Made by a program: the position numbers and the translations under genes. From Minisyncoccota bacterium (lineage in GTDB: Bacteria > Patescibacteriota > Minisyncoccia > Phycocordibacterales > SBAW01), in the NCBI GenBank assembly GCA_035546615.1, contig DASZWM010000002.1, forward strand, positions 15,460 to 79,459: a stretch of 64,000 bases of DNA, given 5' to 3'. Numbering within the stretch: the first letter of the stretch is position 1; every line of letters starts with the position of its first letter. The notes under the pieces were generated by a model. The model made no database searches, was not told the DNA's origin, and saw only the letters and a program-made list of their open reading frames with translations. This document shows, one piece after another, positions 6,289 to 58,331 of the stretch.

Positions 6289-7410
6289 TTACTTCTTATC
6301 TCCGGCGAATGCCAGCGCCATGCGCATGTCCTTCGGCTCGAAGAGGGAAATGGTAAACGGGTAGCGCTTGCCGAGCTCGAGGCTTGCGCGGAGCTTTTCT
6401 TCGCTCCCGAACTCGCTGACGTGCACGAGGCCCGCGATGCCTTCCTCAATGGATGCGAGCGCGCCGTGCTTGTTGAACTTGATGACGACGCCCTCAACCT
6501 TATCGCCCTTGTTGTATTTGCCGGAGGCGACCTGCCACGGGTTTTCCTTGAGCTGTTTTGCGGAAAGGGATATTTTGCCGTCCTTGATGTCGATTATTTT
6601 CACCTTCACCTTGTCGCCGACCTTGTAGAAGTGGCGGGGATCGTCAACGAGGCCCCAGTCGATCTCGGAAATGTGGACCAGGCCTTCGAGGCCTTCCTCA
6701 AGCTTCACGAAGACGCCGAAGTCAACCATACCGGTCACCTCGCCCTCTACCGTGTCGCCGACCGCGTAAGACGCAATGAGCTCGCGCTTTTCCTTATCGT
6801 CAACGCCCTTCTCGGAGAATATCAGCTTGCCTTCCTTCGGGGTTGCGGAAATGATGGAAACGATAAGGCGGGTGCCCACCAGCTTGCGCAGCTCGTCGAG
6901 GATCTTGTCCTTGTCGCCGTCTACGACGCGCGGATAGTGCTCGGCTTTAAGCTGGCTGGCGGGGAGGAAGCCGGCGATGCCCTGCCACTCAAGTATGAGT
7001 CCGCCCTTGTTGGCTTCCTTAACCAGTATCTCCACCTGGCGCTTCTCCTTGACGGCAAGCTCGGCCTCGGCCCAGATGAGCGCCTGGCGCGCCTCCTTGA
7101 GGGAAAGCTCGATGTAGCCTTCTTTGCTGTCGGTCGAGATGACCTTGGCGGCGATGCGGTCGCCGACGTTCGTGCGCTTGATGACCTCGCGCGCGTTGAG
7201 GTATTCGCGGCCGAAGATGACGCCGGTGCCGAACGGAGGGAGGTCGATGTAGAGGCGCGCGCGGTCAAGAGCAATGACCGGACCCTCGACGATGTCTCCC
7301 GGCTGGGGAGGGGTAGGAGCACGCTCCATAAGCCCTGCCATGATGGTCGGGGCGGCTGCAGAATCTTCGATCTGGGACGCGTCTAAGACGGCCTCTTTTG
7401 CTTTTGCCAT
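6289..7410 (-). CDS. rpsA: 30S ribosomal protein S1 (short form, several S1 domains)
   Basis: Repeated S1 OB-fold motifs such as GDIVEGPVIALDRARLYIDL and VGDTVEGEVTGMVDFGVFVKL...GLVHISEI. Confidence 0.85.
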   Translation of the reverse strand: MAKAKEAVLDASQIEDSAAAPTIMAGLMERAPTPPQPGDIVEGPVIALDRARLYIDLPPFGTGVIFGREYLNAREVIKRTNVGDRIAAKVISTDSKEGYIELSLKEARQALIWAEAELAVKEKRQVEILVKEANKGGLILEWQGIAGFLPASQLKAEHYPRVVDGDKDKILDELRKLVGTRLIVSIISATPKEGKLIFSEKGVDDKEKRELIASYAVGDTVEGEVTGMVDFGVFVKLEEGLEGLVHISEIDWGLVDDPRHFYKVGDKVKVKIIDIKDGKISLSAKQLKENPWQVASGKYNKGDKVEGVVIKFNKHGALASIEEGIAGLVHVSEFGSEEKLRASLELGKRYPFTISLFEPKDMRMALAFAGDKK

Positions 7411-7627
7411 AGTCTAGTGAAGTAAGCGAAGTAAAAACTTGTTTTTATTTCGGAACGAACGACGACTATATAAGTCGCCGAGACTTCTATAATTATTGTG
7501 TTGTACGGTGAGGCCTCCAGGTCGGAGATTAGTCTCACTCGCGCTAATAAAGGATAGCCCTTTATTGCTTGCACTATATATCAAAACTGCGTGAGGCGCA
7601 AGGCTCTGAATTAAAGAAGAAACCCCG

Positions 7628-7665
7628 CCCCAGCAATGCGCTGGAACGGGGCCTCGGCGCCAGCG
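7628..7665 (-). terminator. rho-independent terminator downstream of the 7687-8277 gene
   Basis: Minus-strand hairpin CCCCGttCCAGCG-cattg-CTGGggCGGGG followed by a T-rich run. Confidence 0.5.
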
Positions 7666-7686
7666 TGGGCCGCTGGTAACCGGAGA

Positions 7687-8277
7687 TCAGGAAGTGAGGA
7701 AGCCGAGCGGCATGTGCCCGACGCCGACGCCGTGAACGATGGCGCCCACCGTGTTGATGTCATTCGACGCGGCGACCAGCAGCGGGGGAGCGTGGCCGTG
7801 GCCGGCGCCCTTCTGCTTGTCGATGTCGAGGCCGTAGGCGTTCGAGATCGCGACGGTCCAGGTCGGAATGAGCGAGCCGGTGGCCGGGTAGGCCGCCGAA
7901 CCGTCGTTCCAGCCGCGGGACTTCACGAAGGCGACGTCGTAGATGCCGGCATGGCCGTCGATCACGCTCGGAATACGGTCGAGAATGACCCCGCCGTCAG
8001 CGACCTGGTCGATGTGCAGCGCGCCCTCCTTGAGGCCGAAGCCGCCGGTGATGGCGTACGTGTCGTCCAGCGCCGAGGCGGCCTTCAGAAGGTTCGGATT
8101 GCCGGTGATGTGGCCGATGACGAAGGCGTCGAAGGCGACCTGGTCGATGTCGAAATGTCCGCTATAGATACCCTTGTCGATCAGCGCGTGGCCGGGCGAC
8201 GAGCCGGCGAACGCGGCGGGAGCGGCGAGCAATGCGGCGGCAAACGATGCCGCAAGAGTCAGACGCAAGCTTTTCAT
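7687..8277 (-). CDS. secreted hypothetical protein with signal peptide
   Basis: N-terminal MKSLRLTLAASFAAALLAAPAAFA signal peptide; Gly/His-rich mature part. No recognised domain. Confidence 0.6.
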   Translation of the reverse strand: MKSLRLTLAASFAAALLAAPAAFAGSSPGHALIDKGIYSGHFDIDQVAFDAFVIGHITGNPNLLKAASALDDTYAITGGFGLKEGALHIDQVADGGVILDRIPSVIDGHAGIYDVAFVKSRGWNDGSAAYPATGSLIPTWTVAISNAYGLDIDKQKGAGHGHAPPLLVAASNDINTVGAIVHGVGVGHMPLGFLTS

Positions 8278-8439
8278 GCGCAGTCCTCCTGGTTGCAGTT
8301 CACTTCCAAATTGACGAATTACAGTTCCGCACTTGTCCTGGATTCAAGGTCCTGGCGTACGGAATACCAGCAGATAGTATGAAATCTTCACGTTTGTGTC
8401 AATATATGTTCTGAACAGGGTCAAAAAATAACAGTGCCC

Positions 8440-8465
8440 CGAGGCGGATTCCTCGGGGCGGGCGA
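8440..8465 (-). terminator. rho-independent terminator
   Basis: CCCCGAGGaatccgCCTCGGGG followed by TGTTATTTTTT on the minus strand. Confidence 0.5.
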
Positions 8466-8482
8466 ACAGATGCGAAACGGGG

Positions 8483-8872
8483 CTAGAAGCCCTCAACTTT
8501 CTTGTATTCCCGGTAGGCCGGGTCGTTGGGGTCAAAAGACGGCTTCTGCGGCTCGGGCGGATCGTCGCCGAGCGCGGCGTCCCGGCCAGTCTCCCCGCGA
8601 CGGCTGCCGTCGCCGAAGCCGCTTTCCGGATTGGGTGTCATATTGAACACCGAAGCGCCTTGCTGCGCCGTTGAGCGGTCGTCAGACATCGGCAATCCGC
8701 GCTGGTTGTGGGTTCCGGACATGTCGGCGTTCCCAACCATCCGTGCAGGGCCGGGGCCGCTGCCATTGGCGATCTCGCGAAGTTCTTCCATGCTTTCCCC
8801 GATATCGCAGATGCCGGGAATTGAGGTTCGGTCAGTGCCGCCGAAAGGGCCGGCGAATTTTGTAAGTCGCAT
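8483..8872 (-). CDS. hypothetical low-complexity protein
   Basis: ORF with a terminator immediately downstream; Gly/Pro/Asp-rich. Weak support. Confidence 0.35.
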   Translation of the reverse strand: MRLTKFAGPFGGTDRTSIPGICDIGESMEELREIANGSGPGPARMVGNADMSGTHNQRGLPMSDDRSTAQQGASVFNMTPNPESGFGDGSRRGETGRDAALGDDPPEPQKPSFDPNDPAYREYKKVEGF

Positions 8873-9366
8873 CTTACCTGCTCCCTAAGATTTTGGTTTG
8901 CCCGATAGGGCGGAACATAGCCTCGTCATCAGCCTTTGCGTATACGCGCAAAAGTTGGAGGTATCCGCTTACTGTAGCGCAAGGGGCGCGCTCTTTCAAA
9001 CAGAGTAATCCCCCGCCGCGCCTAAAAGCGCGCCGGGGGATATGGCTCACACTGAGCCTTTGTCTTCGCCTCGGCGTTTGCCGTCGGGGTATTTGTGGTC
9101 GATAGCGTGCGGGCGATAGACGTCCTTTTCGGGAAGCGGTGTTCGATCCGGCCGAAGGCTCGCGTGCTCCGGCCCGGCAGGCAGACTGGCGCGTGCCCGG
9201 GCGAGCGCCTCGTCTATTTTCCGCTCCCGTTCCTCTTCTTCTGTTTCTGTTCGCACTGTTCGTACTCCTCGTAACCGACTCCGCATCATACAACAAGGCG
9301 CGAATATGCAAAGTTCTGGGGCATCTGGGGGCGTTTTAAAGAGGCAAAATGCGGCAAAATATGCTA

Positions 9367-9372
9367 TACTAA
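9367..9372 (+). promoter_or_regulatory. -10-like TATACT box 4 nt upstream of the ATG at 9377 (leaderless-type)
   Basis: GCTATACTaaacgcATG, with no Shine-Dalgarno. Confidence 0.3.
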
Positions 9373-9376
9373 ACGC

Positions 9377-9997
9377 ATGGTTATCAGCTATTTGGGGGGC
9401 CAGAATATCAAGGTCACGCAAGGGGATTTGACCCTTTCCTTCAACCCTCCGTCCAAGGACTCCGGCCTCAAGTCGGCGAAGTTCGGCTCCGACATCGTAT
9501 TCGTTTCGACCGACCACGAAGACTTCAACGGCGTTGAGAACGCGAGCTTCGGCGAACGTGAGCCGTTCGCGATAAAAGGCCCGGGCGAGTACGAGGTCCG
9601 GGGGGTCGCGGTGCGCGGCTTCGGCATGCCCACCGAATACGGCGGCAGCCCCGGCATCAATACTATATATAGCGTGGTGCTTGAAGGCATGAACCTCTGC
9701 TTCCTCGGCGCTCTCTCAAATTCAGAGCTTCCGCAGGCGGCCAAGCAGGAGCTCGACGACATCGATATCCTCTTCCTTCCCGTTGGCGGCGAAGGCATTG
9801 TCGATACGGCGGCCGGGTACAAGCTTGCGGTACAATTGGAGCCGAAAGCGGTCGTGCCCATGCCGATGGACGACGGGGCTTTGAAGAAATTCCTGAAGGA
9901 GGCGGGCGCGGAGGACACGAAGCCAACCGACAAGCTCACGCTTAAAAAGAAGGACCTCGACGGCAAACAGGGCGAAATAATGGTGCTCGCCGCATAA
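9377..9997 (+). CDS. metallo-beta-lactamase-fold protein (degenerate metal motif)
   Basis: VSTDHEDFNG lies in the HxHxDH position, and the C-terminal ILFLPVGGEGIV...AVVPMPMDD pattern is typical of MBL-fold hydrolases. Confidence 0.45.
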   Translation: MVISYLGGQNIKVTQGDLTLSFNPPSKDSGLKSAKFGSDIVFVSTDHEDFNGVENASFGEREPFAIKGPGEYEVRGVAVRGFGMPTEYGGSPGINTIYSVVLEGMNLCFLGALSNSELPQAAKQELDDIDILFLPVGGEGIVDTAAGYKLAVQLEPKAVVPMPMDDGALKKFLKEAGAEDTKPTDKLTLKKKDLDGKQGEIMVLAA

Positions 9998-10265: not shown

Positions 10266-12749
10266 ATGGCTGACGACGAAACAAAGAAAGACCCCAAAGA
10301 CGGCCGCACTGACGGCGGCACCGGCATAGTCGGGCGCAACATCTCCACCGAGATGCGCGAGAGCTTCATCGACTACGCGATGTCGGTCATTACCGACCGC
10401 GCGCTTCCTGATGTGCGCGACGGATTGAAGCCCGTGCACCGCCGCATCCTCTACACCATGCATCGCCTGGGGCTCACGCCTTCGGCGCGCTTCCGCAAGT
10501 CGGCGCTCGTGGTGGGCGACGTGCTCGGCAAATACCATCCGCACGGCGACGCGTCCGTATACGACGCGATGGTAAAAATGGCGCAGGAGTTCTCCATGCG
10601 CTATCCGCTCGTGCTCGGCCAGGGCAACTTTGGTTCCGTGGACGGCGACTCGGCCGCCGCCATGCGCTACACCGAAGCGAAGATGTCCCGCATGGCGGAG
10701 CAGCTCCTCGGCGATATCGAAAAGGAAACTATCGACTGGCGCCCCAACTACGACGGCAGCCTCAAGGAGCCGGTGGTGCTTCCGGCCGCGGTGCCCAACA
10801 TTTTGCTTAACGGCACGCTCGGCATCGCTGTGGGTATGGCCACCTCTATCCCGCCGCACAACCTCACCGAGCTCTCAAACGCGCTCGTGCACCTTATTGA
10901 GAATCCCGAGGCGACGGTAGAGGACCTCATGCAGTTCGTCACCGGCCCCGACTTCCCAACAGGTGCGCTCGTATTTAATAAGAAGGACCTGCTCCACGCG
11001 TACACCACCGGCAAGGGCGGCGTGGTTACCCGCGGCGTTGCCGAAATTGTGGAGGGCAAGAAGGGCGACTATCAGATAGTCATTACCTCCATACCGTACC
11101 GCGTGAACAAGGCCGACATGATAATGCGCGTAGCCGACCTCGTGCACGAGAAGAAGCTCGAGGGCATCCGCGGCCTGCGCGACGAGTCCACCAAGGACAT
11201 CCGCATCGTAGTAGACCTGAAGCAGGGCGCGCATCCGCAGAAGGTGCTCAACTACCTCTACAAGCACACGGCGCTCGAGGACACGTTCCACTTCAACATG
11301 GTCGTGCTCGTGGACGGCGTGCCCCAGACCCTGTCGCTGAAGGGGATACTGCAGGAATTCATCAAGCACCGCCAGGACGTCGTGCGCCGCCGCACGCAGT
11401 ACGACCTTACGCAGGCGCAGGCCCGCGAGCATATATTGCTCGGCCTCAAGAAGGCGCTCGACCATATCGACGAGATAATCAAGCTCATCCGCGCATCCCG
11501 GGACGTGGCCGACGCACACGCAAACCTGATGAAGAAGTTCAAGTTCTCCGAACTGCAGGCGACCGCCATTCTTGAAATGCGCCTCCAGAAGCTCGCCAAC
11601 CTCGAGCGCAAGAAGATAGAGGACGAATTGAAAGAGGTTCAGGCCCTTATCGAAGAGCTCACGAGCCTGCTGAAGAGCGAAAAGAAGATGATGACGGTCA
11701 TCCGCGGCGAAATAGAGGACATCAACAAGAAATACGGCGACGAGCGCAACACCAAGGTGGTAAAGGGCGCGGCAGGCGTCATTAACGTCGAGGACCTCGT
11801 GCCCGACGAGGAGCAAGTGCTCGTGCTCACCCAGGGCGGCTATGTAAAGCGCACCAACCCCGACGAGTTCCGCAAGCAAAAGCGCGGCGGCGTGGGCGTC
11901 ATCGACCTCGATACCAAGGAGGAGGACTTCGTAACGAACTTCCTCACGACCTCGACGCACTCGGACCTGCTCTTTTTCACCAACGCGGGCAAGGCGTACC
12001 AGCTGAAGTTCTACGAGATCCCCGAAGGCAAGCGCTCCACCAAGGGCCGCCCTATTGTGAACTTCCTCTCCGTTACCCCCGAAGAGCGCGTTACCTCGGT
12101 GCTCCCTATGCGCAAGAACCAGAAGGAGGGCGAGAAATTCCTCTACATGATAACCAAGCAGGGCGTCGTGAAGAAATGCGACGCGACTGCCTTCCACGAT
12201 GTGCGCCGCTCCGGCCTCATCGCGCAGAAGCTCCAGAAGAACGACGAGCTCATCGCGGCACTCTTGGTGGAGAAGGGCGATGAAATATTCCTTTCGACCG
12301 CCAAGGGGCAGTCTATCCGCTTCAAGGAGTCCGACGTGCGCCCGATGGGCCGCGCGGCCGGAGGCGTGCGCGGCATGAAGCTCAGCGGCGGCGATACCAT
12401 CGTGGGTGCCGATGTGGTTAAGAAGGGAGTAAAGAACCAGGAAGTGCTCGTCATTTCACGCAACGGCTACGGCAAGACGACCGCGACCGAAGAATATAAG
12501 AACCAGAACCGCGGCGGCTCCGGCATCAAGACCATGAATATGACCCCCAAGACCGGCCCGCTTATCGCTGCGCGCATCATCACCAAGGAAGATGGCGTGG
12601 GTGAGGACGAGATCGTGGTCATATCTAAAAAAGGCCAGGTCATCCGCACCGAGCTTAAGGAGATCCCCAGCCTTTCCCGCAGCACGCAGGGCGTACGCGT
12701 TATGAAGCTCCGCGAAGGCGATGCGATAGCAAGCTTCGTTTGTCTATAG
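10266..12749 (+). CDS. gyrA: DNA gyrase subunit A
   Basis: [21 protein letters not shown] active-site region, the catalytic Tyr region [10 protein letters not shown], and C-terminal beta-pinwheel repeats. 827 aa. Confidence 0.95.
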
Positions 12750-12752
12750 GAT

Positions 12753-13346
12753 ATGGATACTACCACTCAGGCGTATCTTGAAATTCTGGAGAAAACAAAT
12801 CAGCAATTAAGTCTTTGGTATAACCCATATGGTCTAATGGTGGCAGTATTGACTGGCCTAGTAGCGGCACTTGCAATTGTTTTTGCTTTTATTTTATGGA
12901 GACAGCAGAAAGAATATAAAGATGCTTTTAAAGATTTTCTCGCTGAACGTAAAAAGTTCGCCAATAGTGAGATAGCAAAGGCAATAGTAGAAGCCGGAAA
13001 AGTGCTTGACGATAAAATTATAGAAGCGGACAAACAACTCAAAGATATAAAAGACTCAAGTAGCAAAACAAAAAAAGACATTGAGAAGGAAATTCAAGAA
13101 CTCAAAAAGTCCAGAGAATCTTTGCAGTCAGGTAGTGCGATTTTTCGTAGTGGAGGTGTGAGCGGCCCAATATATGGCACCGCTGCGAGTTCTATTTTGG
13201 GAGTAGCTTCTGGCGCGAATAGTACAACCGTTTGGGATCCAACTTCTAGTGTATTTAGTGCTGTTGGTAAAATATGTGGTTTTTGTGGAACTCAGAATTA
13301 TCCTGGCGCACAATTCTGTTTCTCTTGTGGGAACCCCCTTGGATAA
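12753..13346 (+). CDS. membrane-anchored coiled-coil protein with C-terminal zinc ribbon (AT-rich gene)
   Basis: One TM helix, a K/E-rich coiled coil, and a C-terminal CGFCGTQNYPGAQFCFSCGNPL C4 ribbon. Local GC is much lower than the flanks. Confidence 0.5.
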   Translation: MDTTTQAYLEILEKTNQQLSLWYNPYGLMVAVLTGLVAALAIVFAFILWRQQKEYKDAFKDFLAERKKFANSEIAKAIVEAGKVLDDKIIEADKQLKDIKDSSSKTKKDIEKEIQELKKSRESLQSGSAIFRSGGVSGPIYGTAASSILGVASGANSTTVWDPTSSVFSAVGKICGFCGTQNYPGAQFCFSCGNPLG

Positions 13347-13383
13347 AAAGTTCTTGTCTTCCTAGAAAGAATCTAATCACTAT

Positions 13384-14358
13384 ATGAAAATAAAGATTGA
13401 AGAATTGCGGCAATTAATGGTTAAAATTCTTGCGGGCAAGTATTACTCGCAGGAGGAGGCAGAAAAGATTGCCGAAGTTTTTCTTTATGCTGAATTGTCC
13501 GGTAAAAATACACAAGGAGTTCTTAAACTTCTTGGTTCTGAGCCGGCTCAAAATATACAGCCCAAGTATCTTCCTAAGATTATAAAAGAGACAAAAGTAT
13601 CTGCGCTTGTAGACGGAGGCGGAGCGGCCGGACCTTTGGCAGCTCAATTTGCACTAGATAAGGCGATTTCATTGGCTAAAGAGACTGGAGTAGGAATTGT
13701 GGGTTTAAACAATACTTTTTCTAGCGTAGGAGTTATGGGATTTTATGCTCGCAAGATGGCCCAAGCAAATCTGATAAGTATTGTGAGTGCAAGTTCACCC
13801 AGAGCAATTGTTCCTGCGGGAGGTATTGAGCCAGCTTTTGGCACAAACCCCATAGCATTTGGTTTCCCTACAGAAGAATATCCAATCGTTTTTGATATGG
13901 CGTCTTCGGCTATCACTTGGTATGGGCTTGTTCGTGCAAAAGCCCTTGGTCAAAAGCTACCCGAAAATGTCGCGATTGATAAAGAAGGAAACATAACAAC
14001 TGATCCTGAGGCGGCAATGGCTGGAGCTATTTTACCTTTTGATCGCTCTTACAAAGGTTCTGGGCTGGCTATGGTCGTTGAACTCTTAGCGGGAGCTTTT
14101 ACAGGTGCATCGGTTGTATTTGACGAAGGTGACTGGGGAACTTCCTTTATTGCCTTTAGTCCCGATCTTGTTATTGGCACTGAGCAATTCAAGAAAAAGT
14201 CCTCAGAGCTGGTAAAGAAAGTAAAAGCAGGCAAAACCAAAGCAGGAGAGAGCATACATATCGCCGGTTATGACAGCGAGGCAAAGCTAAAAGAGATCAA
14301 TGATTCAGGAGAGATAGAGATTGAAGATAAAATTCTCGATCAACTAAAGACTTTGTAA
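13384..14358 (+). CDS. Ldh_2 family (malate/L-lactate dehydrogenase type 2) oxidoreductase
   Basis: YKGSGLAMVVELLAGAFTG and IEPAFGTNPIAFGFP are characteristic of the Ldh_2 family. Confidence 0.65.
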   Translation: MKIKIEELRQLMVKILAGKYYSQEEAEKIAEVFLYAELSGKNTQGVLKLLGSEPAQNIQPKYLPKIIKETKVSALVDGGGAAGPLAAQFALDKAISLAKETGVGIVGLNNTFSSVGVMGFYARKMAQANLISIVSASSPRAIVPAGGIEPAFGTNPIAFGFPTEEYPIVFDMASSAITWYGLVRAKALGQKLPENVAIDKEGNITTDPEAAMAGAILPFDRSYKGSGLAMVVELLAGAFTGASVVFDEGDWGTSFIAFSPDLVIGTEQFKKKSSELVKKVKAGKTKAGESIHIAGYDSEAKLKEINDSGEIEIEDKILDQLKTL

Positions 14359-14365
14359 TAAGAAT

Positions 14366-14905
14366 ATGAAATTTGGGAACTTGAAATTTGCGCCTGCCAT
14401 TGAACACCCAGAACTTTTGGCTGCTCCTGTTGCTAGTGCACTTACGAGTTTGTCCATCGCTGATGTTGGTGTCGCAGAAATCGACCCAGCTCTCTCCGAC
14501 ACCGCAGCATTTTGCGAGAAGTACGCCGTTGTGCCTGCCCAGGCTGCTAATTGTGTAGTGCTTAAGTACAAAAAAGGCGAAGAGTCGGCCTTTGTCGCAT
14601 GCGTGATTTTGGCAACCACTCGTGCTGATGTGAACGGCCTGGTGCGCAAGGTACTCGACATCAAAAAGATTTCTTTTGCGCCCATGGAGGAAGCCGTGGC
14701 AGGAAGCTCGATGGAATTTGGAGCAATAACTCCTATCGGTTTACCAGCTAATTGGCCAATTTTAATAGACAAAGCCGTTGTCGATTCTCCTGGGGTTATA
14801 ATCGGGAGCGGAATTCGCAAATCTAAATTAGGTTTACCGGGCAGAGTTCTTGCTTCACTGCCGAACATACAAATACTTGAAGGGCTAGGTCAGGTAAAGA
14901 CATAA
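14366..14905 (+). CDS. YbaK/ProX-type aminoacyl-tRNA deacylase domain protein
   Basis: The fold pattern CVVLKYKKGEESAFVACVILATTRADVNGL...GAITPIGLP resembles Cys-tRNA(Pro) deacylases. Confidence 0.55.
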   Translation: MKFGNLKFAPAIEHPELLAAPVASALTSLSIADVGVAEIDPALSDTAAFCEKYAVVPAQAANCVVLKYKKGEESAFVACVILATTRADVNGLVRKVLDIKKISFAPMEEAVAGSSMEFGAITPIGLPANWPILIDKAVVDSPGVIIGSGIRKSKLGLPGRVLASLPNIQILEGLGQVKT

Positions 14906-14912
14906 TAAATAT

Positions 14913-15167
14913 ATGAGCAAAGGAGATACAGTACCGCCAGTTCCTTCGGACGCTCCTCAGGTAGGAGAGGTCTTTAAGCATTACAAAGGGGACCCATACC
15001 GCGTCGTAGCGCTCGCGCTCCATTCCAACGACGACGAGTGGATGGTGGTGTACGAGCCCATATACGAAAATCCGGCCGCGCCCATGTTTACCCGGCCGGT
15101 TCGGGAGTGGGGAGAGGAAGTAGAGTGGGAAGGCAAAAAAGTGAAGCGCTTTCAAAAAACAGCTTAA
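14913..15167 (+). CDS. DUF1653-like small protein
   Basis: HYKGDPYRVVALALHSNDDEWMVVYEPIY matches the DUF1653 core. Confidence 0.5.
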   Translation: MSKGDTVPPVPSDAPQVGEVFKHYKGDPYRVVALALHSNDDEWMVVYEPIYENPAAPMFTRPVREWGEEVEWEGKKVKRFQKTA

Positions 15168-15199
15168 TTCTTTATTTTAGCTTTTTGCAAAAAACTAAA

Positions 15200-15604
15200 A
15201 TGAAAAAGACCGTCATCTTCGACATGTACGGCGTGCTGGTGCGCCGGAACTTTTTCATAAACGAGGAGGAAGATACGGAGATGGTCGCGCTTGTGCGGGA
15301 GCTTAAAGAAAGGGGAACTCAGCTTCTGCTACTTTCCAATATCTATATATGGAACTCGGCGCACTTCAAAAGGAAGTACCGCTTTTTGGAGCTGTTCGAC
15401 AGGCTCTACTTCTCTTCCGACACTCACTTTTCCAAGCCCGACCCGGCGGCATTCCGAATGGTGCTTGAGGAAAATAACCTAAGCTCCGAAGACTGCGTCT
15501 TTTTTGACGACACAAAGGCCAATGTAGAAGGGGCGAAAGCCCTCGGCATAGAAGCGTATGTGTTTGAAGGCCCGGATGCGACAAGAAAAGCATTGGGTAT
15601 GTAG
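15200..15604 (+). CDS. HAD-superfamily hydrolase
   Basis: Motif I IFDMYGVL (DxD-type nucleophile), the LLLSN and K regions, and the motif IV FFDD. Confidence 0.7.
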   Translation: MKKTVIFDMYGVLVRRNFFINEEEDTEMVALVRELKERGTQLLLLSNIYIWNSAHFKRKYRFLELFDRLYFSSDTHFSKPDPAAFRMVLEENNLSSEDCVFFDDTKANVEGAKALGIEAYVFEGPDATRKALGM

Positions 15605-15646
15605 GAGAGGGACGAAAAGGGATATTTAATGCTATAACACCGGAAG

Positions 15647-16066
15647 ATGAATAGTGGAAAGGGGGCAGCGATGCCGAAAATCGAAATCGACAAGATGATG
15701 CTGGCTCGGGTGGAGGGGAGAAAGCTCCTGTTCGCCCGCACGCGCGGCCTGGATACCTTTTACAGCCTGGGCGGCAAGCGCGAGCCGGGCGAAACGGATG
15801 AGCAGGCACTGGTACGCGAAGTGCTGGAAGAGGCGAACGTCCGCATAGACCCCGCTACCATTAAGCACGTACAGACCTTTGAAGGGCCCGCCCCGGACGG
15901 CCGTTGGATGCGCATGACCTGCTACGACGCGGAATTTGAGGGCGTCATGACGCCTTCAAGCGAAATAGAGGAGTTCAAATATCTGAGCTCAACCGATAAG
16001 CAGCTGACAACCCAGATGGGCGCCATGCTCCTGGACTGGTTCAAGGAACAAGACCTCATCGACTGA
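15647..16066 (+). CDS. NUDIX hydrolase
   Basis: Nudix box GGKREPGETDEQALVREVLEEANV. Confidence 0.8.
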   Translation: MNSGKGAAMPKIEIDKMMLARVEGRKLLFARTRGLDTFYSLGGKREPGETDEQALVREVLEEANVRIDPATIKHVQTFEGPAPDGRWMRMTCYDAEFEGVMTPSSEIEEFKYLSSTDKQLTTQMGAMLLDWFKEQDLID

Positions 16067-16111
16067 CAATATTCGTTCTATACTATAGCCAGTCTGAACA
16101 GGGAGAAATAC

Positions 16112-16306
16112 ATGAGCGATCGGCGAGATTTCGACGACAGCGACTTTCCAATCCGCGGTGGGGGAAAGCAGCCGTGGAGCTTAAAGATCTCGCGCCAGGA
16201 AGTGGAAGCCGCCGTAGAGGAGGGCAACCTTCTGCGCATGCTCGACCAAGAAGTGACTGTGACGCCGGAGGTCATCCTGATGATCGAAGCAGCACGTCGC
16301 TTATAG
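16112..16306 (+). CDS. small hypothetical protein
   Basis: A 64-aa ORF followed by a strong terminator. Confidence 0.3.
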   Translation: MSDRRDFDDSDFPIRGGGKQPWSLKISRQEVEAAVEEGNLLRMLDQEVTVTPEVILMIEAARRL

Positions 16307-16328
16307 GCGACTTCGCCACTGAAAACTA

Positions 16329-16360
16329 AAAGGCCGCCCATGGGCGGCCTTTTGCTTTTG
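16329..16360. terminator. bidirectional rho-independent terminator
   Basis: AGGCCGCCCatgGGCGGCCT flanked by A and T runs, between convergent genes. Confidence 0.7.
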
Positions 16361-16385
16361 TCGTAAGGAACAGGTCGGGCCATAG

Positions 16386-17033
16386 CTAGGCCGTGCGGAA
16401 GCGCCCCGCGCCAACCCACTCGTCTTGGCCCTTGGGCTTGGGGTAGTCGTAGCGCTCGCGAGCCGACCAGACGTCGACCCGGTGACAGAACGAAGCTAGC
16501 TCGTTCATAACCCGGCGCTTGGACGAGTAGTCCGTGTACTCGCCCTCCACGTACGTCAGCGCGTTCATCTGGTAGTCGGTGAGAACGATTCCGTATTCGC
16601 GCAGCTTCTGCTCGCGGAAGCGCCGGAACGCCTCCTTGGTCTGCAAGCCTTCCGCGTTGCTGGCTTCTCCGTTCTTAACTTGGATTCGCCACGGCTTCTC
16701 CAGGTCGTGAAGGAAGAATATCAGCGTGAAATCGTCGAGCTCAAAGCGCATTGGCCTTCCGAAGGCCTTCTCGAACTCGTACAGGTGTCGCCCGTAGTTG
16801 AGGCCGTCGGTGATGTGGTCGATGTAGCCGCCTGCCCACGTTTGATGGTTGTGGGTTGAACCCTGAGCCTTCTCGAAGAGCTTGCGATTATCCTGCAGGA
16901 TGCGTTCGCAAGCGCCCCTCAGGCTGGTATCGCGGATATGAGTCAGGCATTCATCGATAGTTTCGTAGTCGAAACCGAGGTTTATGGTCCGCACGGCTGT
17001 CTCCCTGGGTTTTGAAAGGACTGTTTTTACCAT
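16386..17033 (-). CDS. HD-domain-like hypothetical protein
   Basis: An H...HD arrangement (STHNHQ ... FFLHDLEK). Confidence 0.4.
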   Translation of the reverse strand: MVKTVLSKPRETAVRTINLGFDYETIDECLTHIRDTSLRGACERILQDNRKLFEKAQGSTHNHQTWAGGYIDHITDGLNYGRHLYEFEKAFGRPMRFELDDFTLIFFLHDLEKPWRIQVKNGEASNAEGLQTKEAFRRFREQKLREYGIVLTDYQMNALTYVEGEYTDYSSKRRVMNELASFCHRVDVWSARERYDYPKPKGQDEWVGAGRFRTA

Positions 17034-17075
17034 ACCACCTTGTAAGGTTTTAATGAACGGCGCGTCAAAAGGGGT

Positions 17076-17495
17076 ATGAAATTACAATTTTTTGCGGGAT
17101 TTTTAGTAGCTATCTTGGCACTTGTGGGCGTTTGGGCGTATGCCTCTTGGGACCGCAACAAGATGCTGGACGGACAGGCGAACCAAAATATAGTTTCTAA
17201 TGACGCCTCATCTTCTCCCGCGACCGGCGGCAAAAAGTCGCCTACTTCGGAAACTTTGACCGGCACCATTGAGTGCCTCCCGCATAAGGGCGACGGCCCC
17301 CACACTATGGAATGCGCCGTCGGCATCAAGACCGACCAGGGCCAGCACTACGCCCTCACCATGTTCGACTATCCGTCCGCTGCCGACGTTGGCGACCATG
17401 TGAAGCTCGTCGGAGTTACCGTAACTACAGACGAACTTCATGCGAGCTATGACATAGTCGGTACATTCCAGGTCGCAAGCGTTGAAAAGATATGA
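17076..17495 (+). CDS. secreted or membrane-anchored hypothetical protein
   Basis: N-terminal hydrophobic segment FFAGFLVAILALVGVWAYA. Confidence 0.5.
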   Translation: MKLQFFAGFLVAILALVGVWAYASWDRNKMLDGQANQNIVSNDASSSPATGGKKSPTSETLTGTIECLPHKGDGPHTMECAVGIKTDQGQHYALTMFDYPSAADVGDHVKLVGVTVTTDELHASYDIVGTFQVASVEKI

Positions 17496-17608
17496 AAGCG
17501 CGCATCGTAAAAATGAAAAACGAATACGGAGGGGAGCTGACGGTCATCCTGATAGCGCTTGCGGCGGTATTGGCCTACGCGTTCTGGGGCTCGCTGCTCA
17601 TCAAGTAA
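17492..17608 (+). CDS. small membrane peptide (38 aa), hypothetical
   Basis: ATGA overlap with the upstream stop; one TM helix (LTVILIALAAVLAYAFWGSLLI); terminator follows. Confidence 0.3.
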   Translation: MKARIVKMKNEYGGELTVILIALAAVLAYAFWGSLLIK

Positions 17609-17615
17609 TAACAGT

Positions 17616-17640
17616 ACAAGCCCCCGCGGGGGCTTGTTTA
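17616..17640 (+). terminator. rho-independent terminator
   Basis: CAAGCCCCCGCGGGGGCTTG followed by TTT. Confidence 0.6.
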
Positions 17641-17901
17641 GAATTCGCGACCGAACCATTTCCCCTGATGCGGAGGCGCATCGTCCTCCATATCGCCCGG
17701 GGATGTGCTGACCGCCGCCTTTCGCATAAGAGCCGTCTGGATGATGGTGTTGAGGTGCTCCGCTCTCGCGCGGTAGACAAGCACCGCGCCTCTCTTCACG
17801 TCATATCGCCGGTAGGCCTTGATCCCTGCCGCCGTCAATTCGCGGCGTATCGCCAGAACCGTTCTCTTGGCGGCTCTGACTTTTAGAACAGTCTCCTTCA
17901 T
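17638..17901 (-). CDS. small basic hypothetical protein (87 aa)
   Basis: ATG preceded by GGAG. The N-terminal part of the track ORF overlaps the methyltransferase gene, so the start was placed at the internal Met. Confidence 0.4.
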   Translation of the reverse strand: MKETVLKVRAAKRTVLAIRRELTAAGIKAYRRYDVKRGAVLVYRARAEHLNTIIQTALMRKAAVSTSPGDMEDDAPPHQGKWFGREF

Positions 17902-17960
17902 TGCCGCTCCTGCCGCAGTATGCGCCTGAACCGACACGACTATACCATGCGTTCGTGGGG

Positions 17961-17966
17961 TATACT
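17961..17966 (+). promoter_or_regulatory. -10-like TATACT box 7 nt upstream of the methyltransferase ATG
   Basis: TATACTtatacgcATG. Confidence 0.3.
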
Positions 17967-17973
17967 TATACGC

Positions 17974-18531
17974 ATGGCAGAGAGTACTTTTTTGCACCCG
18001 GGTGCGGCGGTGCGAGCGGCCGGCATACATGAGGGGCTGCTCGTAGCCGACTTCGGGGCGGGGTCCGGCTTTTTTACCCGGGCGGCGGCGCGCGAGGTAG
18101 GCGATGCGGGCGCAGTGTGGGCGGTAGACCAGAATCGCGACCTGTTGCCGCGCATCAAGAACCTTTCGGCAGGCGAAGGACTCAACAATGTAGAGGTTAT
18201 GCACGGCGATATCGAGGTGGTGGGCGGCACCAACCTGCCGGAGAACCATTTCGACTTCGTTATTCTCGCCAACGTGCTTTTCATGCTCTCCGAGCGCGGC
18301 GAATGCATGGCGGAGATGCGCCGTGTGCTCAAAAAGACCGGCCGCGTTCTTGTTATCGACTGGAAGGATTCATTCGGGGGCCTTGGGCCGCATCCGGACC
18401 ATGTGATCACTCAGGAAGCGGCACAGGCGCTGTTTGAAAAGCACGGCTTCACCATGGGCCCCGCGGTGCCGGCGGGCGAGTATCATTGGGGATTTGTCGT
18501 TCGCAAAAAAGCCGCGCAGGGCGCATTATAG
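17974..18531 (+). CDS. class I SAM-dependent methyltransferase
   Basis: Motif I VADFGAGSGFFT, the motif-post-I acidic residue, and a DW motif. Confidence 0.75.
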   Translation: MAESTFLHPGAAVRAAGIHEGLLVADFGAGSGFFTRAAAREVGDAGAVWAVDQNRDLLPRIKNLSAGEGLNNVEVMHGDIEVVGGTNLPENHFDFVILANVLFMLSERGECMAEMRRVLKKTGRVLVIDWKDSFGGLGPHPDHVITQEAAQALFEKHGFTMGPAVPAGEYHWGFVVRKKAAQGAL

Positions 18532-55431: not shown

Positions 55432-55502
55432 TGCCCGATCGTCTAATGGTAGGACAGAGGCCTTTGAAGCCTTTAATTGGGGTTCGAATCCCTGTCGGGC
55501 AG
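55432..55502 (+). tRNA. tRNA-Gln (anticodon TTG)
   Basis: 71 nt: acceptor TGCCCGA/TCGGGCA, anticodon loop CTTTGAA, T-arm TGGGG-TTCGAAT-CCCTG. Confidence 0.8.
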
Positions 55503-55533
55503 CAAATGTAGCGAAGCGTAATTTGCGCCCGAA

Positions 55534-55726: not shown

Positions 55727-57400
55727 ATGCCGTATTCGACTGATATGTCAGTGTATTTAGATTTGGGCGGCGCTTTAGCTGCTTTTGGCCTTTTATTTAC
55801 TGTTTACCAACTTCGGCGACCAAGGTGGGAGGTAATTTTGCGAATTAGAAATAATTGGCAAAGTGATATTTTCTGGATATTAGGTTTTATAGGTTTGTTT
55901 TATGCCCTAGTTGGCGTGCTTGTATCTGAACTCCCAATTAATTCTTTCAACTTTCCGTTTAATACCCCATTACTTTACGAGGTGGCAGCGTACCTATCGT
56001 TTGTAGCTTCACCTCTGTCATTAATATATTTTGCGACCAATGACAAAAAGTTATTTAACGCAAAAACTGCAGAAACTTTCTACGAAGTAATCTTGCAAGA
56101 AATTTCTAAATCTAGTGATGTAAACCTAGATGCGGCATTGGAAATAGTCTTGAGAAACTTTAATGAAATTTGTGATGCAACTCTTCAAAATACAGATAAA
56201 GATTTGCGCTCATACGCAAGGTCAATTTTAGACGTTGTACTAAGTGACGAGTCTGTAGTAAAAGTGCTCACTACCAAGAGGCTTGATGCTTTGCAATATA
56301 TCTTTTATTTAATAAAGGAAAAGAATATCACTCGTGCTCATTCGGGGATAGGTATACCGAGAATTGTAAATAATCTTTTCTTTGACGAAAATTCCTTCCT
56401 CTATAAACAACTCGATAGAAAAGGGTTGGCACTTTCATCAAATATATACACGAGCATTTTTGAATCTCCAGTTATACTCACCAACTTTGATCTGTTTGGG
56501 TACCCGACTATCGGTTATGGAATGAGTAGAGATACTGGCAATGCTGGTATAAGAGTATTTATCAAAGCCTTATCTCTAAGCATTGAAACTTACTTTAAAA
56601 CAGGGAGCGTGCCTCCGAGGCACATTAATAATGGGTTGTCTTACTTAAGCAATATATTTGGAGGGTTGTGTGCAAAAATTGCCATCAAAGAAAATAAAGG
56701 TGTTGATACTAAATCTAGTTTAGAAGATGAGTGGTGGGGCTTACATCAAATAGCCTCCTTTTTAGGACATGATTATATTTTTCTTGCCTATGAAGAAAAA
56801 CTAAATCAGCAAGTTCTGGAAAACGAAAAAACTGCCCATGAGGCTCGATTTGGCTCAAATGCAACTATAAATGAGGGTATTGCAGCTGTTATCTATAAAG
56901 CTTTTGAGCAGCTTTCACAAATTAAAAAAACCACAGACATATATCATACAGTTCTGGAGCTCTTGCATGGAATGATGAATGAGCCTACCTACAAGGAAGG
57001 TTATAGACCGCCTTTTGAAAAGAGACTCTGGCAACAAATCGGTGCAAATGTTGCTAAACGTTATTATCCTGCCGTCGTTAGAACGTATTTAACCTTTGTT
57101 GGGTTCTGTCTTGGCGCAGATGCAAACCAACGACAAGGTTGGATTGGCGAACAAGCGGAACGTATGAGACGACTTTTGTATATTGACCTTAAGCCTTTAT
57201 TTGATAAGAATGAAAAAATGATAAATAAGGAATTTATGAAAGACGTTTTGCTCCCAGATTCCATGTCCTATAAAGATGGTAAATTTACTTATACCTCTGG
57301 ATTCGGAGAAGGTACAACCACTGAAGTAGCACCACCCCCTGAGGGTGCGACATCAGGTTTGGAAGGAATAGATTTAGAGAGTATGCCTCACTTCGTCTAG
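55727..57400 (+). CDS. large hypothetical membrane protein (3-4 N-terminal TM helices, about 440-aa soluble domain), AT-rich island
   Basis: Local GC is far below the genome average; no recognisable catalytic motif. Confidence 0.6.
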   Translation: MPYSTDMSVYLDLGGALAAFGLLFTVYQLRRPRWEVILRIRNNWQSDIFWILGFIGLFYALVGVLVSELPINSFNFPFNTPLLYEVAAYLSFVASPLSLIYFATNDKKLFNAKTAETFYEVILQEISKSSDVNLDAALEIVLRNFNEICDATLQNTDKDLRSYARSILDVVLSDESVVKVLTTKRLDALQYIFYLIKEKNITRAHSGIGIPRIVNNLFFDENSFLYKQLDRKGLALSSNIYTSIFESPVILTNFDLFGYPTIGYGMSRDTGNAGIRVFIKALSLSIETYFKTGSVPPRHINNGLSYLSNIFGGLCAKIAIKENKGVDTKSSLEDEWWGLHQIASFLGHDYIFLAYEEKLNQQVLENEKTAHEARFGSNATINEGIAAVIYKAFEQLSQIKKTTDIYHTVLELLHGMMNEPTYKEGYRPPFEKRLWQQIGANVAKRYYPAVVRTYLTFVGFCLGADANQRQGWIGEQAERMRRLLYIDLKPLFDKNEKMINKEFMKDVLLPDSMSYKDGKFTYTSGFGEGTTTEVAPPPEGATSGLEGIDLESMPHFV

Positions 57401-57402
57401 AT

Positions 57403-57960: not shown

Positions 57961-57969
57961 TCTTTCTCT

Positions 57970-58293: not shown

Positions 58294-58331
58294 GATTTCG
58301 ATTTCTCCCTTTTATATTATATAATCAAGAT

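Follow-up and report, generated by a model that had tools for sequence, protein, structure and literature searches.

Why should a short run of AT-rich genes begin directly behind gyrA in a genome of Candidatus Adlerbacteria, a lineage of the CPR? The window analysed here, a stretch of 64,000 nucleotides, contains such a run, and the original prediction had described it as a block of three genes, lower in GC than its flanks and starting 3 nt after the gyrA stop codon, which may be an older horizontal acquisition. The block itself was confirmed. The GC content falls from about 0.60 to about 0.40 between positions 12700 and 12800, and the step lies exactly at the gyrA stop codon (12747-12749). 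The first ATG past this stop is at 12753, and the resulting spacing of 3 nt is unremarkable because co-directional genes are 1-9 nt apart window-wide. The three genes of the block (12753-14905) are intact and co-directional on the plus strand, with gaps of 37 and 7 nt between them. As had been proposed, they encode a protein with a transmembrane (TM) segment and a C4 zinc ribbon (TM-ZnR), an Ldh_2-family protein, and a YbaK/ProX-type protein. The features of the region are listed in Table 1.

Table 1. Features from gyrA to the methyltransferase gene (positions in the window)
Feature	Position	Strand	Remarks
gyrA, 827 aa	10266..12749	+	Left anchor of the variable slot, conserved; orthologues with PF00521 and PF03989
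TM-ZnR, 197 aa, GC3 0.29	12753..13346	+	Pfam Zn_Ribbon_1; first gene of the AT-rich layer
Ldh_2-family NAD(P)H-oxidoreductase-like, 324 aa, GC3 0.33	13384..14358	+	Pfam Ldh_2, E = 1e-81, full length
Free-standing YbaK/ProX-like aminoacyl-tRNA editing domain, 179 aa, GC3 0.43	14366..14905	+	Pfam tRNA_edit, E = 5e-18
DUF1653, GC3 0.59	14913..15167	+	Intermediate layer; Pfam match
HAD-IA hydrolase, GC3 0.65	15200..15604	+	Family matches; homologues in the slots of 3 relatives
NUDIX hydrolase, GC3 0.74	15647..16066	+	Host-like; Pfam match
Small conserved ORF, 64 aa	16112..16306	+	Ends the co-directional array; similar small ORFs in the L001 slot
Strong bidirectional terminator hairpin, 12-bp stem	16327..16354		Earliest terminator-like signal past gyrA
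215-aa protein	16386..17033	-	Convergent with the array; cargo of host-like GC; one homologue, in the L051 slot
139-aa slot cargo	17076..17495	+	Homologues in the L003, L011, L055, and L056 slots
Class I SAM-dependent methyltransferase	17920..18531	+	Right anchor of the slot; family matches; borders the slot in about 60 relatives

The 38 other genes within the window served as the reference for the formal codon statistics. The GC3 values of the TM-ZnR, Ldh_2, and YbaK genes were 0.293, 0.332, and 0.428, respectively, compared to 0.713±0.085 for the reference genes (z = -4.9, -4.5, and -3.4). A CAI-like index was lowered in the same order (z = -3.4, -3.2, and -2.9), and the Karlin codon bias was raised (z = +6.0, +5.0, and +3.7). 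Codon usage is therefore not uniform. In order from gyrA, GC3 was 0.29, 0.33, and 0.43 in the block and then 0.59 for DUF1653, 0.65 for HAD, and 0.74 for NUDIX; the codon bias z of DUF1653 was 2.7. The anomaly thus fades near 15.6 kb and has no sharp end at 14910, and the AT-rich part of the slot comes to about 2.2-2.9 kb. The three downstream families had been named correctly, whereas the view that all of them are at normal GC did not survive the gradient. The pN of the block genes was 0.13-0.28 against a saturated pS, and the genes are under long-term purifying selection. A second AT-rich block of the window, at 55727-58715, abuts a tRNA-Gln gene; a direct repeat of this tRNA-Gln was sought at the far end of that block and none was found.

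The interval between gyrA and the methyltransferase gene, 12750-17919 in the window, is as a whole a clade-wide hypervariable hotspot. It measures between 6 bp and 7 kb in about 60 relatives. The backbone around it is conserved in these loci and runs from a 373-aa gene through LactB3, a small ORF, gyrA, the slot, the methyltransferase gene, and a 433-aa gene to small genes. In the window, the methyltransferase gene is likewise followed by the conserved 433-aa protein, whose counterparts in L110 and L107 match SBP_bac Pfam families, and then by small pilin-like genes. The slots hold 229 ORFs in 165 families, 143 of which are singletons, and the cargo is mixed (NUDIX, ASCH, Fic, HAD, Ser_hydrolase, DUF4145, NYN, Mrr, and others), with 75% of it on the plus strand. 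NUDIX is the commonest resident, found in the slots of 13-16 relatives, and DUF1653 is also frequent, with homologues of 58-72% identity in 11 slots. Low GC characterises the slot of almost every relative; AT-rich genes directly follow gyrA in about 25 independent assemblies, and roughly half of the relatives have a sharp left edge at the gyrA stop codon. The synteny of the three-gene block is not conserved among them. Near the right end of the slot in the window, the 215-aa protein had zero matches in Pfam and NCBIfam, and the 139-aa protein has an N-terminal hydrophobic stretch that, read by eye, resembles a signal peptide or a TM segment.

The GC deficit of the slots is polar. In 29 loci, which are not phylogenetically independent, the deficit relative to the host amounted to -0.134 over the 300 bp that adjoin gyrA, shrank monotonically until it reached about -0.03 at 1.8 kb, and was -0.02 beside the methyltransferase gene (Wilcoxon p = 5e-5). 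By ORF rank from gyrA, the GC3 deficit was -0.23, -0.15, and -0.10, and the trend was positive in 17 of 23 loci. If the slot grew by accretion, shared families should be distal and singletons proximal; this arrangement was not detected (p = 0.76), and spurious antisense ORFs add noise to the comparison. The gyrA product of the window is 66-90% identical at the amino acid level to those of 80 relatives (Adlerbacteria/Paceibacterota MAGs). Its gene has a GC3 of 0.83, which stays at or above 0.77 in 100-codon windows toward the 3' end and is 0.67-0.68 in the last 30-60 codons, and L001 is its best match all along to the stop. Since gyrA is host-like in GC3 and in its identity to L001 up to the stop, no recombinant tract is visible, and no donor-type tract was seen inside the gyrA 3' end. 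GC3 evolves fast across the clade, and that of gyrA spans 0.43-0.92.

The first gene of the block encodes a predicted membrane-tethered zinc-ribbon accessory protein. Its TM segment covers residues 25-51 of a long helix (25-126), and two CxxC pairs (CGFCG...CFSCG) lie in residues 175-196; the match to PF13240 Zn_Ribbon_1 is marginal (25.3 bits, cut-off 25). The AlphaFold model predicts helices at residues 4-19, 25-98, and 104-126, a disordered stretch at 130-169, and the ribbon at 170-197 with a pLDDT of 73-82. The N-terminal motif Y-x4-EKTNQQLS-x3-NPY is invariant in the family, and the ribbon is missing in some members. The best homologue with known context (L103, 50% identity) belongs to another Adlerbacterium, where it starts 3 nt past gyrA and is likewise AT-rich (GC3 0.28 vs 0.64). 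A distant homologue occupies the same position after gyrA in L003.

The Ldh_2 protein matches PF02615 with 275 bits over model positions 1-333 of 333, and its best PDB match is 2x06 (E = 6e-44). It missed the cut-offs of all NCBIfam equivalogs; sulfolactate dehydrogenase scored best (207 bits, cut-off 500), and the AllD equivalogs gave 150-163 bits against cut-offs of 356-496. His44 and His116 of AllD have been called invariant and catalytic in the Ldh_2 family, one of them being the general acid/base, and Thr156, Pro158, Asp174, and Lys224 contact NAD(P)H (PMC3527362). In alignments to 2x06, 1v9n, and 4h8a, both histidines are replaced in the window protein, by Gln44 (GKNTQG) and Ser114 (NNTFSSVG). 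The same state was found in 30 of 30 close CPR homologues aligned. The equivalents of the cofactor residues (T154, P156, D171, and K224) are invariant in the subfamily alignment. Judging from these residues, the window protein is a member of an atypical CPR subfamily. It resembles ComC (2x06), AllD, DpkA, and YiaK in its full-length fold and in the retained NAD(P)H-contact residues, and differs from them in Gln44 and Ser114, which stand in place of the two histidines, and in the missed equivalog cut-offs.

The distribution of Ldh_2 also differs from that of its neighbours. No homologue was found in the loci of 80 relatives, even at E < 0.01. The closest homologues (55-80% amino acid identity) are all on contigs of 37-43% GC, and the window gene itself has 42.7%. 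The copy of a Taylorbacteria-like genome is 77% identical to that of the window, whereas the gyrA of that genome is only about 67% identical. In 8 of 8 contexts examined, the neighbours of Ldh_2 differ. The homologues with 80% and 74% identity have large serine recombinase genes within 1-4 kb; one of these two contexts adds HTH_17 and the other a tyrosine recombinase. By this pattern of homologues, Ldh_2 is the only gene of the block that is foreign to the slot of the clade.

The YbaK-like protein has a single domain that matches PF04073 tRNA_edit with 65.7 bits (cut-off 25.5). It shares with the YbaK/ProX trans-editing domains a length of about 180 aa, this match, a conserved Lys, and a G-x-I-T-P-x-G loop. 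It departs from them in its score of 29.4 bits against a cut-off of 153 for TIGR00011 YbaK_EbsC (the Cys-tRNA(Pro) deacylase equivalog) and in the weak PDB matches of its family profile (1wdv, 3.6e-4; 1dbu, 2.5e-3), which together mark it as a distinct, uncharacterised CPR subfamily. Lys K69 and the loop G119-A-I-T-P123-x-G125 are conserved in the family; by analogy with YbaK and the INS domain, both may correspond to catalytic residues. The protein is presumably a deacylase for mischarged tRNA. Its best homologues with known context (L012, L109, the P0125 contig, and L110; 69-76% identity) are all in the slot downstream of gyrA. For most pairs, the YbaK identity was roughly in line with that of gyrA (rho = 0.48, not significant); in the pair L012 and L109, however, the gyrA C-terminus was 96.5% identical and YbaK 74%. 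The YbaK GC3 deficit was 0.40 in the window vs 0.07-0.18 in the slots of other Adlerbacteria. TM-ZnR and YbaK could be long-term residents of the slot rather than new arrivals.

Signatures of mobility were sought at several levels. No recombinase, integrase, or transposase was found in the slot of the window, and the block has no tRNA gene closer than about 9 kb, in agreement with the original prediction that neither an integrase nor a tRNA marks it. Among the 142 slot ORFs with 50 Pfam families, the 25 commonest families included no recombinase, integrase, transposase, or other mobility family, a survey that a rare one could escape. In the window, searches for a second gyrA 3' end, for direct or inverted repeats at the flanks, and for microhomology gave no meaningful result; no repeat family separates its slot genes and no attC-like repeats were detected there. 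In the slots of 35 relatives, the search for att-type signatures against shuffled controls gave a mean z of 0.23, with none above 3. A phage or defence origin of the three genes was rejected, as there were no PHROG or PADLOC matches of substance and no Ldh_2 relatives on the viral contigs searched. A search of the stretch from the end of gyrA to the hairpin at 16327-16354 revealed neither promoter-like sites nor strong terminator-like ones.

Taken together, we consider, with a probability of roughly 0.7, that the block is the youngest layer in a slot used across the clade, made of horizontally acquired DNA that has not yet ameliorated, and that its three genes are independent of each other. 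The layer is taken as the youngest, and not as an old one, because its GC3 of 0.29-0.33 compares with 0.71-0.83 in the host and because it is the AT-richest, gyrA-proximal part of the gradient; the supposed greater age of the acquisition is thereby not supported. Horizontal acquisition as such fits the foreign composition and the absence of the block from the closest relatives, but the block is not uniformly alien, as TM-ZnR and YbaK have homologues in Adlerbacteria slots. The genes would have come from lower-GC CPR donors. The pool behind Ldh_2 is probably one shared by low-GC Paceibacteria that are only distantly related, and in some cases it moves on elements with a recombinase; the pool behind TM-ZnR and YbaK may be one that Adlerbacteria trade among themselves from slot to corresponding slot. 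Integration would have involved no resident mobile element, and recombination following the uptake of DNA is its most plausible route. Incoming DNA may enter preferentially at the gyrA-proximal end, which would create the polar GC gradient, and the promoterless genes may depend for their expression on read-through from gyrA, as far as the hairpin. No donor of the block was identified, and a metagenome scan gave 16 loci. Synonymous sites are saturated relative to every database homologue of the block genes, so the age and the number of transfers (one or several) cannot be fixed.

If the block were instead what is left of a decayed site-specific integrative element, for example one with a large serine recombinase and analogous to SCC elements, which targeted the gyrA end and has since lost its recombinase, successive integrations there would pile up with the newest element beside gyrA. 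The polar gradient fits such single-site stacking, roughly half of the relatives show a sharp edge at the gyrA stop, and large serine recombinase genes accompany the Ldh_2 homologues of 80% and 74% identity. However, neither the slot of the window nor the 25 commonest slot families contain a recombinase, integrase, or transposase, a duplicate of the gyrA 3' end or flanking repeats are missing from the window and from 35 loci, and the block lacks PHROG and PADLOC matches as well as viral Ldh_2 relatives. We therefore regard this origin as rather unlikely. The composition could also be read without any recent transfer: TM-ZnR, YbaK, and perhaps all slot genes would be old vertical residents, which as weakly selected and rarely recombining genes follow the universal AT-biased mutation while the core is held at high GC. 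The GC-poor homologues of TM-ZnR and YbaK in the same slot of other Adlerbacteria, the fast evolution of GC3, and the GC-poor slots of nearly all relatives are consistent with this. Yet Ldh_2 is absent from the loci of 80 relatives and is closer to its Taylorbacteria-like counterpart than gyrA is, YbaK has a far larger GC3 deficit here than in other slots, L012 and L109 are discordant, and 143 of 165 slot families are singletons. Moreover, a monotonic polar gradient is not predicted by mutation in situ, which is an improbable account of the block.

The possibility that the three genes were acquired as one functional operon, for instance of a membrane-tethered regulator, an oxidoreductase, and a deacylase, is suggested by their common direction, short gaps, and similar composition. 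Tight spacing, however, is the rule everywhere in the genome, and the genes do not travel together: a YbaK or TM-ZnR neighbour was found in 0 of 8 distinct Ldh_2 contexts, and Ldh_2 in 0 of 7 YbaK slot contexts and 0 of 2 TM-ZnR contexts. The zinc-ribbon, Ldh_2, and YbaK families are not known to be linked biochemically. A joint acquisition is thus very improbable, a conserved three-gene module was rejected for want of co-occurrence in any context examined, and the unusual combination noted at the outset does not hold as a unit. That assembly or binning inserted a low-GC fragment from a different organism in an Adlerbacteria contig is hardly credible. The contig is metagenome-assembled and the GC change is abrupt, but the conserved Adlerbacteria backbone continues on both flanks, and the junctions coincide with gene boundaries, where the ORFs are intact and the spacers 3-7 nt long. 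AT-rich genes after gyrA recur in about 25 independent assemblies, in L103 with a homologous zinc-ribbon gene, and the nearest relatives of YbaK are Adlerbacterial slot genes.

The reading of the block as the youngest acquired layer places the slot near several known arrangements. Chromosomal hotspots of horizontal transfer, or flexible genomic islets between conserved core genes, are reportedly a concept of Oliveira, Touchon and Rocha from 2017. The slot is like them in that gyrA and the methyltransferase gene bracket an interval that differs in nearly every genome, with mostly singleton families and GC-poor cargo, often without mobility genes. It is unlike them in lying in ultra-small CPR genomes and abutting the stop of an essential topoisomerase gene, and in its cargo, which is co-oriented with gyrA, apparently promoterless, and marked by a clear polar GC gradient. 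The foreign composition of the block and its sporadic occurrence among relatives recall tRNA- or integrase-associated genomic islands, from which it differs by having no integrase, tRNA, or direct repeats and an AT-rich part of only about 2.2-2.9 kb. In staphylococci, SCC elements sit at the 3' end of rlmH (orfX). An integron has an IntI integrase, attI, and cassettes that lack promoters, share one orientation, and are separated by attC repeats. As in these arrays, the slot adjoins one conserved gene, its cargo is tandem and co-oriented, and the newest layer appears nearest to the entry site; Ldh_2 homologues elsewhere adjoin large serine recombinases, as in SCC. In contrast to both, no Ccr-like recombinase or IntI was detected in the slot of the window or among the 25 commonest Pfam families of the 142 slot ORFs, nor any attC-like or direct repeats, and the resemblance to integrons goes no further than the shared orientation of the cargo (75% plus strand) and the missing promoters.

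A bolder reading combines two proposals. In Adlerbacteria, foreign DNA may enter directionally at the gyrA stop codon with no need of a mobile element and leave a stratified, integron-like record without an integrase, and the loss of both histidines in the Ldh_2 subfamily may imply a different chemistry or a non-catalytic role. Capture beside gyrA would perhaps occur by one-sided, homology-anchored recombination after uptake, with the conserved gyrA as the anchor, and older cargo would be displaced or left toward the methyltransferase gene, ameliorating there. We put these two proposals forward jointly and tentatively, as a doubtful though possible extension.

Horizontal transfer at this locus is fairly ordinary in kind, apart from two less usual features on the side, the Ldh_2 subfamily without the histidines and the AT-rich block at tRNA-Gln, and the finding of an AT-rich, possibly transferred block is mostly confirmatory. 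No description of a hotspot downstream of gyrA in CPR was found in the literature searched. What the slot adds is one precise position, the interval after gyrA, that is reused for gene gain across a candidate phylum-level clade, with small enzymes of house-cleaning and quality control (NUDIX, HAD, ASCH, YbaK, and Fic) as its consistent cargo. Jaffe et al. 2020 (PMC7304191) describe the metabolism of acetate and lactate as patchy among CPR. The histidine-less Ldh_2 subfamily calls for caution on "lactate/malate dehydrogenase" labels in CPR metabolic reconstructions. The CPR/Patescibacteria have tiny, streamlined genomes whose routes of gene gain are poorly understood, and the polar GC gradient offers a way to test how, and at which point, they take in DNA.

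The most fitting description of the three-gene AT-rich block that directly follows gyrA is the newest layer of a hotspot of horizontal gene transfer, hypervariable and without an integrase, downstream of gyrA in Adlerbacteria. Against a window mean of approximately 58-60%, the GC content calculated in 200-nt windows dropped from 0.60 (12500-12699) to 0.41 (12700-12899), stayed at 0.34-0.48 until approximately 14400, recovered slightly within the third gene, and regained the host level at approximately 15.7 kb. The GC3 values of the zinc-ribbon, Ldh_2, and YbaK genes were 0.29, 0.33, and 0.43, respectively, compared to 0.713±0.085 for the 38 other genes of the window. Relative to the same 38 genes, the z values of the three genes were about -3 for a CAI-like index, and 6.0, 5.0, and 3.7 for the Karlin codon bias. 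The lower GC content claimed for the block was thus borne out by both the sliding-window analysis and the codon statistics, and Pfam recovered the three predicted genes, the zinc ribbon marginally. DUF1653, HAD, and NUDIX genes were indeed located 3' of the block; however, the normal GC content ascribed to them did not hold for DUF1653 and HAD, whose GC3 values (0.59 and 0.65) were intermediate. From gyrA outward, the GC3 series formed a gradient of 0.29, 0.33, 0.43, 0.59, 0.65, and 0.74. As the original prediction had stated, there was neither an integrase in the block nor a tRNA gene near it. The 3-nt spacer between gyrA and the block is typical, since co-directional genes in this genome lie 1-9 nt apart. 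All three genes were intact and under long-term purifying selection (pN of 0.13-0.28 versus saturated pS).

Features of the gyrA neighbourhood and of the second AT-rich block (window coordinates)
Feature	Position	Strand	Remark
373-aa gene	6289-7410	-	conserved backbone
Smaller variable interval	7410-9377		up to Lactamase_B_3 (9377)
gyrA	10266-12749	+	conserved backbone
Variable slot	12750-17919		gyrA stop to SAM-methyltransferase
Zinc-ribbon gene	12753-13346	+	intact ORF; Pfam C-terminal zinc ribbon, marginal score
N-terminal motif of the zinc-ribbon protein	12753-12830		residues 8-26
Ldh_2 gene	13384-14358	+	intact ORF; full-length Pfam Ldh_2, E = 1e-81
YbaK/ProX gene	14366-14905	+	intact ORF; Pfam tRNA_edit, E = 5e-18
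Hairpin	16327-16354		12-bp stem
SAM-methyltransferase	17920-18531		right flank of the slot, conserved backbone
160-aa and 118-aa ORFs	19846-20686		small proteins, tandem copies in relatives
tRNA-Gln gene	55432-55503
Second AT-rich block	55727-58715		four co-directional ORFs

No promoter-like or strong terminator-like signal was found between gyrA and the hairpin; therefore, gyrA is probably co-transcribed with the eight co-directional genes that span 12753-16306.

The window carries a second AT-rich block, which begins approximately 220 nt after the tRNA-Gln gene. Its ORFs (557, 185, 107, and 141 aa; GC3 of 0.30-0.37) had no match in Pfam, PHROGs, or PADLOC. The codon usage of this block correlated with that of the block beside gyrA (r = 0.83) and showed no correlation with that of the host (r = -0.08), and no repeat of the tRNA-Gln 3' end was found at its far end.

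The synteny in relatives was assessed by tblastn of the window genes against the loci of 80 genomes labelled Candidatus Adlerbacteria, Paceibacterota, or Patescibacteria, whose gyrA is 66-90% identical to that of the window (best match, 90%). The backbone was conserved in the order 373-aa gene, Lactamase_B_3, small ORF, gyrA, a variable gap, the SAM-methyltransferase (MTase), a 433-aa protein, and small pilin-like genes; the counterparts of the 433-aa protein in two loci (L110 and L107) matched SBP_bac Pfam families. The gap, in contrast to the backbone, varied from 6-36 bp (e.g., loci L066, L049, and L020) up to 7 kb. It was mostly shorter than 300 bp in the more distant Taylorbacteria-like outgroups, so the adjacency of gyrA and the MTase is probably ancestral. 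Crude ORF calling in the gaps yielded 229 ORFs, which fell into 165 sequence families with 143 singletons among them. A Pfam scan of 142 gap ORFs most commonly returned NUDIX (16), ASCH (6), and Fic (4), together with DUF1653, HAD, Ser_hydrolase, DUF4145, tRNA_edit, NYN, and SET, and single cases including adh_short, Ham1, adenylosuccinate lyase, VanY, and an aminoglycoside nucleotidyltransferase; the 25 most frequent families included no recombinase. About half of the Adlerbacteria loci have a different ORF that begins 0-8 nt past the gyrA stop (e.g., genes for Mrr_cat+ASCH, DUF4145, NYN, and Trypco2 proteins), and the first 300 bp past gyrA had a GC content of at most 40% in 25 of 56 loci. 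With its flanks conserved and its content variable among relatives, the window slot is one case of a clade-wide hypervariable slot.

The spacing between the 373-aa gene and Lactamase_B_3 also varies, by 0.2-2.4 kb, among relatives (L001-L056), which indicates a second, smaller variable slot just upstream of gyrA. On the other side, 3' of the MTase and 433-aa genes, relatives (L001-L080) encode homologues of the window 160-aa and 118-aa ORFs, small proteins present as 2-4 divergent copies in tandem; the copies in L110 matched the T4SS_pilin Pfam family.

The GC deficit relative to flanking core genes was determined for 29 loci whose slot measured 1.5 kb or more. The deficit was -0.134 in the first 300 bp past gyrA, and then changed monotonically (-0.107, -0.092, -0.077, -0.055, -0.046, and -0.027) to -0.02 beside the MTase. 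The first and last quartiles differed in a paired test (p = 5e-5; p = 9e-5 when the window was left out). Furthermore, the GC3 deficit by ORF rank was -0.23, -0.15, and -0.10, with a positive trend in 17 of 23 loci (p = 0.035), and the GC3 series of the window matched this clade polarity exactly. Most simply, this would mean that the gyrA-proximal end is where new DNA enters or is replaced most often, and that the distal cargo is older and partly ameliorated. Families common to several genomes were not more distal than singletons (p = 0.76).

For the YbaK gene, the best match (76%) was the first gene past gyrA in locus L012, and further matches (74, 72, and 69% in L109, the P0125 contig, and L110, respectively, plus L014, L017, and L024) all lie in the same slot, which makes YbaK a recurrent slot resident. 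Its GC3 deficit was 0.40 in the window, compared to 0.07-0.18 elsewhere. YbaK alleles were decoupled from gyrA: L012 and L109 share 96.5% identity across the 230 C-terminal GyrA residues, but only 74% in YbaK. These two loci, close relatives by gyrA, nevertheless differ in slot contents. In L017 the YbaK gene (12919-13269) is shortened to approximately 116 aa and in L024 (13236-13560) only fragments were seen, at a contig end, suggesting that cargo decays within the slot. The protein has a tRNA_edit domain with the conserved Lys and a G-x-I-T-P-x-G loop, and is distant both from the YbaK equivalog that has been characterised and from all solved structures; judged by these features, it would most likely be a free-standing deacylase that clears mischarged tRNA.

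The zinc-ribbon gene belongs to a small family (46 matches). The best homologue with known context (50%) occupies the same slot, 3 nt past the gyrA stop, in another Adlerbacterium (L103), and is also AT-rich (GC3 of 0.28 versus 0.64 for gyrA). In L003, gyrA is followed first by a distant homologue that shares this architecture (GC3 of 0.35). Other homologues (42% identity) lie on contigs of 27-29% GC crowded with small ORFs. The predicted architecture of a transmembrane segment, coiled coil, and zinc ribbon agreed with a single hydrophobic segment (residues 25-51) and with an AlphaFold model built on 21 homologues, in which helices (4-19, 25-98, and 104-126) are followed by a disordered stretch (130-169) and a small terminal ribbon. 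By the positive-inside rule, the helices and ribbon are predicted to face the cytoplasm. An N-terminal motif, Y-x4-EKTNQQLS-x3-NPY, is invariant just before the TM helix; the family is otherwise fast-evolving, with a variable helical part and a C-terminal ribbon missing in several members. The N-terminal motif is what defines the family, some members of which can do without the ribbon.

At a threshold as lenient as E < 0.01, the Ldh_2 gene had no match in any of the 80 relatives' loci. Its best database homologues were 80, 80, and 77% identical, the named ones being from Amesbacteria, Curtissbacteria, and Paceibacterota. The 55-80% homologues with DNA retrieved all lie on contigs of 37-43% GC, and the window gene has 42.7% GC. 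In the genome with the 77% homologue, FtsZ, FtsA, and YbeY are 75-87% identical to Taylorbacteria-like loci, whose gyrA is approximately 67% identical to the window gyrA. An accessory gene more similar (77%) than gyrA (~67%) points to acquisition by transfer. The Ldh_2 neighbours were different in each context examined: a homologue (80%) in L081/L082 (3001-12000) accompanies a large serine recombinase, HTH_17, and an AAA_15 ATPase, one (74%) in L106 (2800-9650) is flanked by a tyrosine recombinase on one side and a large serine recombinase on the other, and one in L108 adjoins conflict-system-like genes. The recombinase-bearing islands in L081/L082 and L106 suggest that, in other CPR genomes, Ldh_2 is carried by integrative elements.

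In alignment, the window Ldh_2 retains the cofactor-contact residues T154, P156, D171, and K224. Two histidines are reported to be invariant in the L-sulfolactate dehydrogenase-like family, with one of them as the presumed catalytic acid/base (Kim et al., PMC3527362). The window protein has Gln44 and Ser114 at these positions, as do 30 of 30 close CPR homologues aligned, with GKNTQG replacing xSHG and NNTFSSVG replacing NxxHxG; more distant homologues retain the first histidine. Therefore, the window Ldh_2 should not be taken for a lactate dehydrogenase or a malate dehydrogenase. Our best guess, held with low confidence, is that it acts as an NAD(P)H-dependent reductase in which the proton relay or the substrate has changed.

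Several explanations of the block were weighed. A three-gene operon with a joint function was rejected, since, in the contexts examined in other genomes, neither YbaK nor the zinc-ribbon gene accompanied Ldh_2, and Ldh_2 accompanied neither of those two; the combination is an accident of the hotspot. An assembly chimera is unlikely given the syntenic flanks, the junctions exact to gene boundaries, and the recurrence of the pattern in independent assemblies. Regarding entry, neither a copy of the gyrA 3' end nor flanking repeats were found in the window or in 35 slots, and no donor-like tract was visible within gyrA. It is possible, though less likely, that the block represents a site-specific element that has lost its recombinase. 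One-sided, homology-facilitated recombination occurs in naturally transformable bacteria. Such recombination with gyrA, by far the most conserved sequence of the neighbourhood, as the anchor would account for the polarity and for the passage of YbaK and the zinc-ribbon gene from one slot to another.

The proposal of an older horizontal acquisition stood in part. Horizontal origin was upheld by the foreign codon usage and by the absence of Ldh_2 from the 80 relatives' loci; however, the near-complete lack of amelioration (GC3 of 0.29-0.33 versus 0.71-0.83 for the host) argues against an older date. Since the nearest sampled relative (L001) is already distant (gyrA dS of ~0.87) and the donors of the block are absent from databases, "recent" applies only in comparison with the L001 split and with the remainder of the slot. 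As an islet within a core-gene-flanked hotspot, the block is of a kind already known. What goes beyond the ordinary is the conservation of this hotspot across a CPR clade, its polar GC structure, and the histidine-less Ldh_2 subfamily.
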